Source of the DNA: Candidatus Fokinia solitaria
GTDB taxonomy: Bacteria > Pseudomonadota > Alphaproteobacteria > Rickettsiales > Midichloriaceae
Assembly (NCBI RefSeq): GCF_003072485.1
Contig: NZ_CP025989.1
Span: forward strand, 240,001 to 272,000
DNA: 32,000 bases
Reading direction: 5' to 3'
Positions 16,608-23,593 of this stretch are shown in pieces (position 1 is the first letter of the stretch; each line of letters opens with the position of its first letter). The position numbers and the translations under genes are program-made. The notes beneath the pieces were generated by a model. That model was not told the DNA's origin and did no database searches. It saw only the letters and a list, made by a program, of their open reading frames with translations.

Positions 16608-17618
16608 TCATTTAATTGTTTTCTTATCATTATGTAGTGTCATGACGGTATCGAGGATATCATCTGTATCAGCATGTAAATATACGGATGTAGAGGCAAT
16701 TGAAGAGTGTCCAAGCAATTCTTGTATTTTTCGTATATCTCCTCCGTGCTTTATCAGATGTGTTGCGAAGCTATGTCTTAAGGTGTGAGGAGATGTTGTA
16801 GCTTCGATGCCGAGAGATGCTAATATAAGCTTCATTTGCCTTCTAAATACATCAGGGTTCAACATATCGCCTTTCATACCGACAAATATTGGTTGCTGCT
16901 GTGCCGCTTGATATGGACATCTCTCGATATATTGCAACAGTGCATCCAGCACATAAGGTAAAAGCGGTACACTTCTATCTTTTTTCCCTTTTCCCTTTAC
17001 CGTAAGGTTGACATCATTTCTATTGAAGTTTTGTTTAAGATCTTCCGCATTGAAGTCTATGTTTGGAAGATCACGCTTCGTAATCTTTAGTACTTCTCCT
17101 ATTCTTAAGCCGCTTCCATATAGCAAAGCGATGATGCTTTTATCTCTGTAAAATAGCCATTCTTCCGGATATAAATTACTGTTGGAAAATTTACATAATG
17201 CAATACTACTACTTTCAGATATTGCCTTTGGTAGAGTGCTTCCCGTTGTTTTGATTTTTAATTTATCAATACTTATAAGCGTCGCGACCTCATAGCTTAA
17301 CTCATTTCTCAAATGAAGCAAAAAATACCGTAATCCGCACAGTGCTCTGCTGTTTGTTTTGCTACTGACCTTATGTTCTGCTCTGAAAGCTAGCCATGCT
17401 CTCATAGTTTGCACAGTTGCTTCAGTGACATAAAGAAGAGTACATTTTGTGCCGTGATAATGAGATAAAAATACTATGAATGATGATACGTCTTGCGCGT
17501 ACGCTCTCGACGTATTCTCACTGACGTACACTTCGATGTATGAATAGAACTTCTCTATTACCTTTGCTAAAACGTCGTCGCAGAAGCTTTGTAATGACTG
17601 TAACTTCATAAAACGCAA
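16608..17618 (-). CDS. Tyrosine site-specific recombinase, XerC/XerD family
   Basis: An N-terminal SAM-like domain is followed by a catalytic domain with R (SGLRIGEV), HTLRHSFATHL, and LLGHSSIASTSVYLH (the R-H-R-Y set). 17616..17618 is TTG; the ATG at 17609 (MKLQS) is the more likely start. Confidence 0.9.
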   Translation of the reverse strand: MRFMKLQSLQSFCDDVLAKVIEKFYSYIEVYVSENTSRAYAQDVSSFIVFLSHYHGTKCTLLYVTEATVQTMRAWLAFRAEHKVSSKTNSRALCGLRYFLLHLRNELSYEVATLISIDKLKIKTTGSTLPKAISESSSIALCKFSNSNLYPEEWLFYRDKSIIALLYGSGLRIGEVLKITKRDLPNIDFNAEDLKQNFNRNDVNLTVKGKGKKDRSVPLLPYVLDALLQYIERCPYQAAQQQPIFVGMKGDMLNPDVFRRQMKLILASLGIEATTSPHTLRHSFATHLIKHGGDIRKIQELLGHSSIASTSVYLHADTDDILDTVMTLHNDKKTIK

Positions 17619-17623
17619 AAAGG

Positions 17624-17696
17624 TGGTCAGAGCCGGAATCGAACCGGCGACACAAGGATTTTCAGTCCTTTGCTCTACCGACTGAGCTATCTGACC
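17624..17696 (-). tRNA. tRNA-Phe (anticodon GAA)
   Basis: The reverse complement folds as a canonical 73-nt cloverleaf: GGTCAGA TA GCTC AGTCGGTA GAGC A AAGGA CTGAAAA TCCTT GTGTC GCCGG TTCGATT CCGGC TCTGACC A. The 3' CCA is not fully encoded (CCT). Confidence 0.92.
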
Positions 17697-18018: not shown

Positions 18019-20613
18019 TTGTTTATGATGGACAATATGGATAATGGTACTTCAATGGAAGGAAAGGACCAAGTAAATGGCGTGAAGAGCGCGGAAGAGA
18101 AAGCGGCGGAAGCGGCTGAGGAAACGAAGGGGGCGAGCGTGGCGGAGAATCATGGCGTCGCTGAAGAAGAGAGCGGTGCGGATGAGTTGGCTGAGGAAGC
18201 GGAGGAAAGTGCGGAAGCAGTTGAGGAAGCGAAGGGGGCGAGCGTGACGGAGAGTCCTGGCGTCGCTGAAGAAGAGAGCGGTGCGGATGAGTTGGCTGAG
18301 GAAGCGGAGGGGGCGAGCGTGACGGAGAGTCCTGGCGTCGCTGAAGAAGAGAGCGGTGCGGATGAGTTGGCTGAGGAAGCGGAGGAAAGTGCGGAAGCGG
18401 CTGAGGAAGTGGAGGAAAGTGCGGAAGCGCAAGGAGAGGACGTTAAATCTGATTCATTTATAGTAAAAGCGGGGACTGGAATCTTTCAGAATGATGTAGA
18501 GCTAGTTATTAAAAGAAATAAGGAAAGCAAGAAAAGTGAGAAAAGCGGAAAAAAACATGGTGATTTAGTAGTGATTACGGGAGTCAATGGCGTGGGGAAA
18601 ACACAGTTTTTGAAAGGTATTAGTGAGGGAAAAAATGACTTTCTCCTCACATCTCGTAGTGGTAGTAGTAAAGCAAATGCTGAAGAGGGAGTACATAGAG
18701 TTAGTACAGTTAGAGGCGCAGTGGAGTGTATGAATTTTTTCTTTGATAAGGATTGGAAAAAGAAAAATAGCGCTTTCTCAAATGGGGTACATACTTTAGA
18801 ACGTAGTTTATTTAAGCGTACTTCTAGAGAATACAAAGAGAGAGTACATTGCATTTTATCGTATGTAATACCGCCATTGCTCTCGTTGCAAGATAATTTA
18901 CATGAGACAACTAATGCTGCTCAAGCTGCTGCTTTTAAAGAAGGATATAACTTAATTGCGAAAAAATTCGCTCTCCCTGCTTATGAGGATTTAGAACACT
19001 TTTTTAAAGGGAAGAATTTAGATGCATCTGCCGTTAATGTAATTTTAATGCAGTATTTTTGTACTCAATATATGCGAAATAGAGAGAACCTTCCACATCC
19101 GCAACGAGATGAATACTGGAAAATTTTCTCCAATCATGCGTACCATATTCATATGACGCACTCTCATTTAGTAGAGATTTTTAAAAAAGAAAAGAAACAA
19201 GATGGCGAATTTATAGAATGGGCGCAATTGGAAGAGTATATAGAAGAGCTTGTCATACGAGAAAATCTCAAAGAGAGGTTGTCAAGTATGCAGAGCATTG
19301 TCGATGTAATACAGTGTACTATGCGAGCAGGTGCGTTGTGTGAGATCAAGAAAAAGATTGATAATATCAAAGATTCTAAGCTTCAAAATGTCGCTTTTGA
19401 ATATAAATTGAGAGATGTTTCCGATTTATCTCATCCAGGAATAGAGTTTGACGATAAAAATAAGCAGTTGATAAAGTTTGAAGATCTGTCAAGTGGCGAG
19501 CAAGTCATGTTCGAACTGATATGTTATGCAGCTCTTTGTAAGATATTAAGTGTGAAGTATCTGCTATTTGATGAGTTTGATGCGAGTTTGAACCCTACAT
19601 TAATGGAGTCATATATCAAAAATATAAGAGATATATTATTAGAGAATGGCATCACTGTTGTGCTTACTACTCATAATCCTTCTACTGTGGCAGTAGTATA
19701 TCCATATGAATTATGGTGGATGGAGAGAAATTACAATACTGAAGATAAGAAATACGAAGTGACGTTGAAGAACGCTGAGAATGAAGAGGGAAGGAGGAAA
19801 GCTAAAAAGCAAAATAATAAGAGTCAAGATACATCGAAGAATGCTAATGATGAAATATTCGATAAGCGAGCAATTCTGCAAAAATTAGCGCCGAAATTTA
19901 TTCCAAGCGGCGATGCTGCGCATCTAATATACAACGCATTGCCTGGAGATAGAAAGATAGTATTTGTAGAAGGAAGAGCGGACGTACAGTACTTATATAA
20001 CAAGTCTTTAGTGCGCAAGTCTAATGAAAAGTATCATTTTAGCTATTTAAATGGCGCCGGCAACGTTAAAAATATTTGTGCGGTACTAACATCGTTAAAC
20101 AGCGGAGAACAAGCCATTTTCGAAAGACAGTTCATCTTTATGTTGGATCATGATGAAGCAGGCTTTGATAGTATGAAAGGATTATTGTCTAGTGAAGATA
20201 TAGAATTTAGCCAAATTATCCCTTCAGATACGAATGAAAATGAGGAAACAGATAGTGAAAAAGCAAAGTGGATAGAGCGTTGTAAGAAGAGAGAAGGAAT
20301 TTTAATACTTAAGAAATTTTTTTGCGTAACGACGTTAGTGCCGCCTGATAACTACAATTTTAAAGAGCATAGATATAGAGAATTGCACTACAAAAATTGT
20401 GGATCGAAAACTACAGAGAAAAATAGTCGTGGATACATCTTAGAAGATCTTATGAGGGAGGATATCAAGAATAAGGAAGAGGGGAGAGAAGGAGAAGCTA
20501 TAAAAAGGCAATTTGACTGGCTTGATAAAATCGTACAGAAGTACGAAGAAACTCATCCTAAGAGCGAGGACGATAAGGCGAATAATGTAGATGAAGCAAC
20601 TAAGGATAAGTAA
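18019..20613 (+). CDS. ABC-type ATPase fused to a Toprim/DUF4435-like nuclease domain (OLD-family / fused AriA-AriB-like), with an N-terminal acidic tandem-repeat region
   Basis: Walker A GVNGVGKT (18580..18603). A long helical insertion follows. ABC signature LSSGEQ (19486..19503). Walker B LLFDEFD (19561..19581). H-loop TTHNP (19666..19680). A Lys-rich linker follows. Toprim-like VFVEG (19960..19974), LNGAGNVKN, and DHD (20146..20154). 18019 is TTG; the ATGs at 18025/18028 are the more likely start. Confidence 0.75.
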   Translation: MFMMDNMDNGTSMEGKDQVNGVKSAEEKAAEAAEETKGASVAENHGVAEEESGADELAEEAEESAEAVEEAKGASVTESPGVAEEESGADELAEEAEGASVTESPGVAEEESGADELAEEAEESAEAAEEVEESAEAQGEDVKSDSFIVKAGTGIFQNDVELVIKRNKESKKSEKSGKKHGDLVVITGVNGVGKTQFLKGISEGKNDFLLTSRSGSSKANAEEGVHRVSTVRGAVECMNFFFDKDWKKKNSAFSNGVHTLERSLFKRTSREYKERVHCILSYVIPPLLSLQDNLHETTNAAQAAAFKEGYNLIAKKFALPAYEDLEHFFKGKNLDASAVNVILMQYFCTQYMRNRENLPHPQRDEYWKIFSNHAYHIHMTHSHLVEIFKKEKKQDGEFIEWAQLEEYIEELVIRENLKERLSSMQSIVDVIQCTMRAGALCEIKKKIDNIKDSKLQNVAFEYKLRDVSDLSHPGIEFDDKNKQLIKFEDLSSGEQVMFELICYAALCKILSVKYLLFDEFDASLNPTLMESYIKNIRDILLENGITVVLTTHNPSTVAVVYPYELWWMERNYNTEDKKYEVTLKNAENEEGRRKAKKQNNKSQDTSKNANDEIFDKRAILQKLAPKFIPSGDAAHLIYNALPGDRKIVFVEGRADVQYLYNKSLVRKSNEKYHFSYLNGAGNVKNICAVLTSLNSGEQAIFERQFIFMLDHDEAGFDSMKGLLSSEDIEFSQIIPSDTNENEETDSEKAKWIERCKKREGILILKKFFCVTTLVPPDNYNFKEHRYRELHYKNCGSKTTEKNSRGYILEDLMREDIKNKEEGREGEAIKRQFDWLDKIVQKYEETHPKSEDDKANNVDEATKDK
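18088..18429 (+). repeat. In-frame GC- and purine-rich tandem repeat encoding an acidic Glu/Ala-rich module
   Basis: A 75-nt core (GASV(A/T)E(NH/SP)GVAEEESGADELAEEAE) occurs at 18130..18204, 18235..18309 and 18310..18384. Copies 1 and 2 are each preceded by a related 30-nt E(S/K)AEA.EE.K linker. Copy 3 abuts copy 2 directly and is followed by ESAEAAEEVEESAEA. Confidence 0.93.
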
Positions 20614-20838
20614 GGTAATCAAGGATAAGTGATGTGACCGAGGGTGATGCTGCCAAAAGCTGATACTTAAGGCTTGCTTCAAGAAATGATGCGTCATCTC
20701 ACGTCAATCTTTACAAAGCATCGAGAGTCTCTATTTAACGGAGATTCGCGAGTGCTATATCTATGACAAAACATGCAATAAGCGCAAAGACTATCACAAC
20801 GAAGTAGAAAAGATGATACAGAGAGTGAGGGAGAGATA

Positions 20839-20912
20839 TGGAGCGGGTGATGGGAATCGAACCCACGCGGCTAGCTTGGAAGGCTAGAACTCTACCATTG
20901 AGCTACACCCGC
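20839..20912 (-). tRNA. tRNA-Gly (anticodon UCC)
   Basis: Reverse-complement cloverleaf: GCGGGTG TA GCTC AATGGTA GAGT T CTAGC CTTCCAA GCTAG CCGC GTGGG TTCGATT CCCAT CACCCGC T CCA (74 nt, CCA encoded). Confidence 0.92.
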
Positions 20913-23014: not shown

Positions 23015-23593
23015 GTGTTTGCCTGATATGACGTGAGTCTTTAAGGTGACATTAGATCAGTTCTTGAGTTTATTTTGTGCTATTAAGAAATATCAGCGAA
23101 TTTAATATTTTCTACGACTGATATCCGCTTATAGTGTGATTGCTGATTTCATGATAGAGCGTGTTGCCTGATATGACGCGAGTTTCTAAGGCAACATTAG
23201 ATCAGTTCTTGATTTTACTTTGTGCTATTAAGAAATATCAGCGAATTTAATATTTTCTACGACTGATATCCGCTTATAGTGTGATTGCTGATTTCATGAT
23301 AGAGCGTGTTGCCTGATATGACGCGAGTTTCTAAGGCAACATTAGATCAGTTCTTGATTTTACTTTGCGCTATTAGGAAATATCAGCGAATTTAATATTT
23401 TCTACGACCGATATCCGCTTATAGTGTGATTGCTGATTTCATGATAGAGCGTGTTGCCTGATATGACGTGAGTTCTTAAGGTAACATTAGATCAGTTCTT
23501 CAGTTTATTTTGCGCTATTAGGCAATATCAGCGAATTTAATATTTTCTACGGCTGATATCCGCTTATAGTGTGATTGCTGATTTCATGATAGA
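23015..23593. repeat. Noncoding tandem array, 4 x ~145 bp
   Basis: Copies lie at 23015..23160 (146 nt), 23161..23305, 23306..23450 and 23451..23593 (truncated). The unit length is not a multiple of 3, and stop codons occur in all frames I checked. Each unit has the inverted repeats gttgcct-N18-aggcaac and atatcag-N22-ctgatat. Confidence 0.95.

Follow-up and report, generated by a model that had tools for sequence, protein, structure and literature searches.

The question raised by this locus is why an obligate endosymbiont with a strongly reduced genome carries a 2.6-kb gene for an ATPase fused to a nuclease-like domain, what its product does and how it came there. The gene lies on the plus strand (18019..20613) of a 32,000-nucleotide stretch of Candidatus Fokinia solitaria (NZ_CP025989.1, positions 240,001-272,000), hereafter the window, from whose first letter coordinates are counted. 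Its host is an obligate endosymbiont of Paramecium (PMC5905368). On balance, and with some reserve, the product is probably an ATP-gated two-metal Toprim nuclease of restriction-linked defence family descent, partnerless, vertically retained and conflict-related in its role. In the list of open reading frames (ORFs), the gene was a single intact frame of 864 aa with a TTG start at 18019, while the public annotation started three codons downstream, at ATG 18028 (861 aa), in agreement with the MDN... beginning of the ortholog from Candidatus Fokinia crypta. The product had 100% identity with a Ca. Fokinia solitaria protein annotated as 'putative conserved hypothetical protein', from a contig/genome of 837,348 bp. 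An earlier note, made from the letters of the window, had described one 864-aa ORF in a reduced genome of the obligate-intracellular type; both statements held, and each of the motifs it listed was found where it had been placed.

With aa 150-864 as query, HMMER was run exhaustively against 1.84 billion representative proteins and returned 1183 matches. Apart from the query itself, the best match (E = 7e-61) was a protein of 848 aa from Ca. Fokinia crypta, followed from E ~1e-28 by proteins of about 600-700 aa; the match ranked directly after F. crypta had E = 5e-28 and about 25-30% identity. The family emerged from this search; a word-indexed homology search with the whole protein returned only the Fokinia protein itself and weak matches. 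Alignments of 15 and 63 members were built, and 16 columns were invariant among the 63 sequences, namely the N, G and K of Walker A, L-S-x-G, the D-E of Walker B, the D of the D-loop, the H of the H-loop, and E651, G652, D655, D710, D712 and G715. Since these columns were exactly the ATPase and Toprim catalytic residues, the motifs are more than chance resemblances. Public names of the subfamily members were limited to 'AAA family ATPase', 'ATP-binding protein' and 'hypothetical protein'.

By its sequence, the Fokinia protein carries an unambiguous ABC/SMC-type ATPase. Pfam AAA_21 matched it with E = 4e-12, and the complete ABC set claimed in the earlier note was recovered and was invariant in the 63-sequence alignment. 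The family alignment placed Walker A, or P-loop, GVNGVGKT at aa 188-195 (18580..18603, plus strand, as for all features of the gene), Walker B and the D-loop LLFDEFDASLNP at aa 515-526 (19561..19596; D518, E519 and D521 invariant) and the H-loop TTHNP at aa 550-554 (19666..19680; H552 invariant), while the ABC signature LSSGEQ at aa 490-495 (19486..19503) was located both by Pfam and by the family alignment. Among PADLOC models, the ATPase was best matched by retron I-B ATPase-Toprim (9e-16, covering the ATPase C-lobe only), AbiLi (2e-15), AriA (8e-14) and PtuA (9e-12). In the Protein Data Bank (PDB), the family profile matched PtuA, AriA, SMC, Rad50 and OLD ATPases, with retron PtuA-type ATPases at 8e-22 and AriA at 5e-13; SMC and Rad50 matched more weakly than the defence ATPases. 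Membership of a housekeeping ABC/SMC family (RecF, RecN, SbcC, SMC), a type of grouping that would have refuted the earlier note, was rejected on these weaker matches and on the NCBIfam scan of the protein, in which no housekeeping equivalog came near its cut-off.

A mostly helical insertion (aa 216-480, 18664..19458), delimited by an AlphaFold2 (AF2) model and the alignment, occupied within the ATPase the place that the dimerisation domain holds in OLD, or the coiled-coil arm in AriA/PtuA. The AF2 model was built with the 63-sequence family alignment (mean predicted local distance difference test, pLDDT, 67.9) and replaced a single-sequence model that was unusable (pLDDT 34.9). In it the insertion was all-helical, with 10-residue blocks averaging only pLDDT 37-79, while blocks reached 87-94 in the ATPase C-lobe (fragment residues 331-430) and 67-90 in the Toprim strands and helices. 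The linker between ATPase and Toprim contained a Lys-rich insertion (aa 592-608, 19792..19842) which had no counterpart in the other 14 sequences of the 15-sequence alignment, F. crypta among them.

The C-terminal part of the protein probably carries an intact two-metal acidic Toprim site made of E651, D710 and D712, plus D655 and probably E809. Strand 1, KIVFVEGRADVQYL (aa 646-659, 19954..19995), was recognised by profile and alignment and contains VFVEGRAD at aa 648-655, with E651, G652 and D655 invariant. Strand 2 and its turn, LNGAGNVKN (aa 677-685, with GAGNVK at 679-684; 20047..20073), were supported by the alignment and the AF2 model, and strand 3, FMLDHDEAG (aa 707-715, with LDHDEAG at 709-715; 20137..20163), by the alignment, with D710, D712 and G715 invariant and the DxD forming the metal site. 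Further downstream, the alignment placed YILEDLM (aa 806-812, 20434..20454), whose E809 falls in a near-invariant IExL motif of the family and is a candidate ligand of the second metal (metal B), and a C-terminal KRQFDWL motif (aa 829-835, 20503..20523) common to F. crypta and several family members. In the AF2 model, the ABC head with its helical insertion was followed by a canonical four-strand beta-alpha (x4) Toprim. The E...DxD Toprim module fused to an ABC ATPase, as first proposed from the letters, was thus upheld by the family profile, by the predicted fold and by the invariance of E651, D710 and D712.

A profile of 35 C-terminal domains of the family (195 positions) matched solved Toprim domains of several kinds: T7 primase at 3.8e-6 over an 86-position core, 1t6t at 3.9e-5, and the retron Ec67/Eco2 reverse transcriptase (RT)-Toprim at 5.9e-5 over 157 of the 195 positions. 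The aligned counterparts of E651 and D655 were E377/D381 in Thermus OLD, E374/D378 in retron Eco2 and E157/D161 in T7 primase. The metal ligands are E377, D381, D431 and D433 in Thermus OLD (PMC7049728) and E374, D378, D460 and D462 in Eco2 (PMC12916289), and the ExxxD...DxD spacing of the Fokinia family is this same pattern. Retron-Eco2 (Ec67, type I-C) was the solved match with the widest coverage of the family Toprim profile, extending beyond the core fold with E374/D378 in register. Eco2 acts as an RNase on tRNA acceptor stems (PMC12916289). The Fokinia locus differs from it in having an ABC ATPase as the regulator and no RT, non-coding RNA or multicopy single-stranded DNA. When the 35 family Toprims were scanned singly with Pfam, OLD-like_TOPRIM matched 22 (best 3.6e-8), Toprim 17 and DUF3226 16; among PADLOC models, RT-Toprim_I-C was the commonest (9), and matches were also obtained with AriAB (4), AbiLii (3), AriB (1), GajA (1) and Old (1). 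The family Toprim was about equidistant from several defence Toprims.

On sequence comparison, the Fokinia protein is best filed within the OLD superfamily, taken broadly, as a member of a divergent subfamily that has no name. The OLD-type architecture put forward in the earlier note was confirmed by hhalign of the family profile against phage P2 Old (97.0% probability, E = 8.3e-11, 175 columns), over a span running from the signature motif to the first Toprim strand (VEGxxD), and by a match to Thermus OLD 6p74 (E = 1.5e-10, residues 259-434) that ran from the ATPase C-lobe into the Toprim DxD. The alignment with E. coli YbjD was weaker (48%, E = 2e-4), with VEGxxE and DxDxxG in register. Foldseek against the PDB ranked 6p74 third, and left SMC, PtuA, OLD, AriA and GajA unseparated, all at E ~1e-5 through the ATPase head; template modelling scores (TM-scores) were low because the model is multi-domain. 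OLD phylogeny recognises eleven uncharacterised clades (PMC12796447).

Among the OLD classes, Class 1 (P2 Old, Thermus scotoductus OLD, YbjD) resembles the Fokinia gene, which likewise stands alone and shows homology at the profile level (P2 Old 97%, 6p74 1.5e-10). It differs from Class 1 in its length (864 aa against ~525-590), in its longer helical insertion, in the acidic repeat N-terminus that it adds, and in a family Toprim whose sequence is closer to the primase-type and retron I-C Toprims than to that of Thermus OLD; a single member of the 35 was matched by the PADLOC Old model. The free-living relatives are found in restriction operons, whereas Class 1 genes, as described in PMC10568477, do not neighbour other defence genes. 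The stand-alone arrangement that marks Class 1 applied to both Fokinia species and not to most close relatives, which sit in type I restriction-modification (R-M) operons. Class 2 (Gabija GajA) was rejected, as no helicase occurred around the gene in the window and GajA models matched 1 of 35 Toprims. Class 3 (retron I-B) was also rejected, with no RT among the neighbours and only tRNAs found by Rfam.

In free-living bacteria, the subfamily is mostly embedded in type I R-M operons (10 of 16 loci). Close family members, one genome per species being scanned, came mainly from Flavobacteriia, with others in a metagenome-assembled genome (MAG) of Saccharospirillaceae, in Spirochaetia, in Actinobacillus and in three alphaproteobacterial or Rickettsiales MAGs. 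By local tblastn, HsdM or HsdR was encoded within 6 kb at 10 of the 16 loci with a close family Toprim and at 1 of 64 control loci, defined as loci matching through the ATPase alone. Pfam annotation of four loci gave the order hsdM-hsdS-[gene]-(GmrSD fragment, AbiEi/AbiEii or Schlafen/AlbA gene)-hsdR, and other family members adjoined an AAA_21 plus RloB pair or a HerA-like gene. The defence-type affiliation claimed for the Fokinia protein was in keeping with these relatives, which lie in defence islands. On plasmids and phages, no relative was found in PLSDB or INPHARED, IMG/VR yielded ATPase-lobe matches only, and PHROGs matches were limited to families of unknown function.

Eight loci (L002, L003, L005, L006, L007, L010, L011 and L012), from several Flavobacteriia and the gammaproteobacterial Saccharospirillaceae MAG, had near-identical hsdM-hsdS-[ATPase-Toprim]-...-hsdR layouts, with cargo between the gene and hsdR that differed by locus (GmrSD fragment, AbiEi/AbiEii, Schlafen/AlbA-HATPase gene). 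HsdM was 62-81% identical across these operons, which suggests that the whole cassette moves horizontally. In an uncultured Rickettsia sp. MAG (L008 3803-7833), a 644-aa family member lay directly downstream of a separate AAA_21 ATPase and RloB pair, so that two distinct ATPase/Toprim-type systems stand side by side in a Rickettsiales genome. The family gene appeared split into two ORFs at L006 5249-7134 (255+358 aa) and at L013 5022-6852 (215+402 aa); these splits may be frameshifts or pseudogenes and indicate that the family decays in some free-living hosts.

This restriction-linked slot is shared with two-gene systems. RloA/RloB and AbiLi/AbiLii combine the same two activities, an ABC ATPase and a Toprim-like protein, and AbiLi was the second-best PADLOC match of the Fokinia ATPase. 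Campylobacter RloAB occupies the restriction-linked slot in type I R-M loci, where the position has been discussed as a hint that ATPase and Toprim systems back up restriction (PMC10802264); family relatives hold the same slot, between hsdS and hsdR. The Fokinia family differs from both systems by fusing the two parts in one chain, and by its Toprims, of which 3 of 35 matched AbiLii, RloB not being among the listed Pfam families that matched them. The anticodon nucleases PrrC and RloC likewise join an ABC-type ATPase regulator to a nuclease, although their nuclease domain is unrelated and no sequence similarity was found beyond the P-loop ATPase. In the PrrC-EcoprrI-Stp case, PrrC is encoded within a type I R-M locus and is activated when restriction is attacked. 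RloC is described as an ABC-type ATPase-nuclease encoded in type I R-M loci and activated under attack on restriction (PMC3874168).

The same slot would suit a fused PARIS system, with AriA and AriB in one chain sensing anti-restriction proteins such as Ocr and releasing a tRNA-cleaving DUF4435 Toprim; a fused PARIS-like protein was among the possibilities of the earlier note. The protein resembles PARIS in combining an ABC ATPase that bears a helical arm with a Toprim effector, and in the conceptual link to anti-restriction sensing that the operon position of its relatives provides. AriA models matched the ATPase (PADLOC 8e-14; PDB AriA 5e-13), and the PADLOC fused AriAB model matched the Fokinia Toprim weakly (E = 4e-4, 17 bits) in addition to 4 of 35 family members. 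The Toprim itself, however, was not of the DUF4435 type: this family matched none of the 35 Toprims, PADLOC AriB matched one, and the solved AriB aligned over no more than 40 residues, with E = 0.13. Better scores came from the models of retron I-C RT-Toprim, generic Toprim and OLD-like Toprim, and retron PtuA-type ATPases stood above AriA (8e-22 against 5e-13). PARIS (Class 4 OLD) was rejected as a membership, and this reading, the least probable of those considered, is largely refuted. Of the earlier interpretation as a whole, the ATPase-Toprim OLD architecture, the missing partner and the reduced genome stood, and PARIS and the implied, perhaps recent acquisition did not.

The Fokinia gene occupies a fixed locus in both known species of the genus. 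Upstream lay a XerD/XerC-type tyrosine recombinase (16608..17618, minus strand; XerD-like over its full length), of housekeeping type rather than a phage integrase, and tRNA-Phe(GAA) (17622..17696, minus strand), while tRNA-Gly(UCC) (20839..20912, minus strand) bounded the locus downstream; both tRNAs, identified with Rfam, were kept as boundaries in F. crypta. The order common to the two species was rpoZ, xerD-like, tRNA-Phe, [gene], tRNA-Gly, ndk, SLT-like, ftsA, xseA and hisS. No partner gene was found among the neighbours (XerD-like and tRNA-Phe upstream, tRNA-Gly and Ndk downstream), which included no helicase, RT or separate AriB, as the earlier note had seen. Promoter and terminator scans gave nothing above chance. 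An integrase-borne tRNA island was also considered and rejected, given the full-length XerD-like recombinase, the lack of att-like direct repeats and the same arrangement in F. crypta; the recombinase type and the lack of flanking repeats make such an island unlikely.

Since the ortholog lies at the same locus in F. crypta, the gene predates the species split and was retained vertically, and the odd, perhaps recent defence acquisition implied by the earlier note did not hold. It was not a universally conserved core gene, as that note had asked to be checked, F. crypta providing the only close ortholog in the library of 1.84 billion proteins; with a locus shared by two Fokinia and no close ortholog elsewhere, it can be called neither a core gene of universal occurrence nor a newcomer. 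In a neighbour-joining tree, the Fokinia pair was monophyletic (100/100 bootstrap) beside a clade holding restriction-linked members and the Rickettsia MAG.

Divergence between the two orthologs was high and unevenly distributed. The pair was 33% identical, against 60-90% for 20 neighbouring proteins. Identity over aligned positions was 65% in the ATPase C-lobe, 38% in the Walker A lobe, 29% in the Toprim core, 24% in the region after the Toprim and 14% in the helical insertion, and F. crypta carried a C-terminal insert of ~200 aa. Saturation of synonymous sites is expected between the two species. All 16 family-invariant catalytic residues were kept in both species. Divergence far faster than that of the neighbours, together with catalytic residues that are held, fits a conflict-related gene under selection.

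The same divergence, several times faster than in every neighbouring gene, could be that of a decaying relic, a former defence gene under relaxed selection that has no current function and is becoming a pseudogene. The reduced genome, the lack of a restriction partner at the locus and the lineage-specific insertions and slippage (the Lys-rich linker, the N-terminal repeat and the C-terminal insert of F. crypta) are consistent with decay. Both orthologs nevertheless remain open over ~850 codons in AT-rich DNA of 35-38% G+C, in which ~7% of random codons would be stops as inferred from base composition, and this argues for continued selection; with the 16 of 16 invariant residues intact in both species and the ATPase C-lobe 65% identical, decay appears distinctly improbable.

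Vertical inheritance at a fixed locus in two genomes of ~0.82 Mb could instead reflect domestication, the protein having become a housekeeping enzyme of chromosome maintenance, replication/repair or cell-cycle control with the ATPase as its key activity. The gene has survived strong reduction of a genome that is nearly devoid of phage and insertion sequences, the ATPase C-lobe is better conserved than the Toprim (65% against 29%), and ATPase-centred functions have precedents. Cran1, an OLD-family ATPase-nickase of Sulfolobales, is likewise inherited vertically in its lineage, an observation from which the search for a role outside defence started; it was recognised through this inheritance, and depends on its ATPase and not on its nuclease (PMC12796447). 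The phenotypes of YbjD are likewise reported to require the ATPase and not the Toprim. In contrast with the Fokinia gene, which is confined to two species and very fast-evolving, Cran1 is an essential archaeal protein whose phylogeny follows that of the species over a whole order. Domestication is also at odds with a gene that is the fastest-evolving of its locus, unlike a core function, that has no close ortholog in other Rickettsiales or Midichloriaceae proteomes among the 1.84 billion representative proteins, that keeps its Toprim catalytic residues invariant, and whose nearest relatives are defence-island genes. It is accordingly regarded as unlikely.

The acidic N-terminal extension (aa 4-150, 18028..18468), defined by composition and family comparison, was found in Fokinia alone. 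The first 150 aa contained 33% Asp and Glu and no Arg, with a net charge of -43, and in all non-Fokinia members the extension was absent and Walker A began at about aa 30-40. A repeat search identified an in-frame DNA tandem repeat within it (18106..18429, plus strand; periods of 105, 75 and 30 nt, 94-98% identical) that encodes three copies of GVAEEESGADELAEEAE. This tandem expansion was specific to F. solitaria; the extension of F. crypta was ~45 residues long, acidic and non-repetitive. Judging from the two orthologs, the ancestor of the genus already had a short N-terminus of acidic character, which F. solitaria expanded to ~150 residues by tandem duplication, and the near identity of the repeat units makes this expansion recent. 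No other acidic repeat tail of this kind occurred among 268 retrieved proteins, in agreement with the earlier note, to which no described OLD or PARIS member with such an extension was known, and the repeat unit itself had no homolog in the databases searched. More speculatively, the tail would most likely be a disordered, polyanionic appendage with a regulatory or autoinhibitory role.

Short repeats also overlapped the stop codon of the gene in both species (81 bp x 1.9 in F. crypta, L001 12527-12682; 19 bp x 2 in F. solitaria, 20602-20639), and together with the N-terminal repeat they suggest that repeats tend to slip at either end of the gene. Between 18001 and 19000, G+C rose to 45% and GC skew to +0.42, against ~35% G+C elsewhere; the purine-rich GAA/GAG/GCG repeat fully explained this rise, which is thus no sign of foreign DNA. 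Overlapping ORFs on the minus strand (e.g., 18052-18432) were rejected as genes, being shadows of the same repeat.

An acidic tandem-repeat N-terminus expanded in one lineage, next to non-catalytic parts of extreme divergence, would also be expected of a host-directed effector, the protein or its repeat module being exported to the Paramecium cytoplasm to act on host nucleic acids or chromatin, with fast evolution reflecting host-symbiont conflict. Acidic tandem-repeat proteins are secreted effectors in other Rickettsiales, such as the tandem repeat proteins (TRPs) of Ehrlichia. Several secretion systems, and predicted secreted proteins of cytoplasmic look, have been reported in the genome (PMC5905368). 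The remaining family is, however, cytoplasmic and restriction-linked, F. crypta lacks the repeats and has only its ~45 acidic residues, the repeat unit has no homolog, and no secretion signal was seen, with no test aimed at one; an effector role is thus considered very unlikely. A related proposal, also rather doubtful though less so than domestication as a housekeeping enzyme, is that a defence-derived OLD-like enzyme was taken over for a non-phage role, either chromosome or replication control as for Cran1 or manipulation of the ciliate host, with the polyanionic, DNA-mimic-like tail as a new regulatory or targeting module. Were it true, the protein would be the first known case of domestication of an OLD-family enzyme in bacteria, and none before it would have carried an acidic appendage in cis.

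A conflict-related function, either defence against phages and mobile elements or a self-preserving toxin-like module, remains the most likely role of the protein in Fokinia. The protein would oligomerise via its helical arm, and a sensed trigger would lead to nucleotide-dependent engagement of the ATPase heads, which would license the Toprim. The latter might then cut DNA, as OLD and GajA do, or tRNA/RNA, as AriB and retron Eco2 do. Control of the Toprim by ATP-dependent head engagement is a proposal modelled on the OLD, GajA, PARIS and retron systems. An ancestor of Fokinia may have acquired the gene without its restriction partner, or lost the partner later, both known species then keeping the gene at the same locus.

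Several observations weigh against the reading of the gene as a nuclease of restriction-linked descent kept for conflict. Scanned alone, the Fokinia Toprim segment scored below threshold with Pfam OLD-like_TOPRIM (E = 0.06-0.095, 14 bits against a 23.2-bit cut-off) and reached only 17 bits in PADLOC, so the Toprim assignment rests on the family profile and the predicted fold. No restriction partner was present within the window. Vertical retention relies on one comparison, as two Fokinia genomes exist, and the tree is a simple distance tree with weak deep branching, the best sister grouping being recovered in 53 of 100 replicates. The published F. solitaria genome has no more than two insertion sequences, and phage sequence is very scarce in it (PMC5905368), so that a defence gene would have no obvious target there. 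Finally, the faster divergence of the Toprim core than of the ATPase core is the pattern seen in OLD proteins with non-defence or ATPase-only phenotypes (YbjD, Cran1).

The protein is less exotic than the earlier note proposed. It is a probable OLD-like ATPase-Toprim nuclease of the restriction-linked type, which lacks the usual partners, has been kept in a reduced endosymbiont and bears a lineage-specific polyanionic repeat. A coherent, uncharacterised subfamily of fused ABC-ATPase-Toprim proteins was picked out in the restriction-linked slot of type I R-M operons, a position which makes its members candidate guards that fire when restriction is inhibited and ties them to work on PARIS, RloAB and PrrC. 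The two obligate endosymbionts of ~0.82 Mb provide a natural experiment, having kept a 2.6-kb gene through speciation without the usual partners. Either such symbionts still meet genetic parasites or the enzyme has been repurposed, and whichever holds would help to explain why defence genes are kept, or acquire other functions, as genomes shrink. ATPase control of the nuclease is poorly understood in the OLD superfamily, and the lineage-specific acidic tail is not seen in its other members.

Two non-coding tandem repeats were further observed in the window, away from the gene. One, at 23019-23593 (145-bp unit x 4.0, 95% identical), lay in a ~1.5-kb ORF-free spacer between 22757 and ftsA (24252), gave no Rfam match, and had no such counterpart in the F. 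crypta locus with Tandem Repeats Finder (TRF) at the same threshold; a repeat of this kind is unusual for a 0.84-Mb genome. The second, at 915-1286 (186-bp unit x 2.0, 94% identical), lay between the ORFs at 80-877 and 1547-2830.

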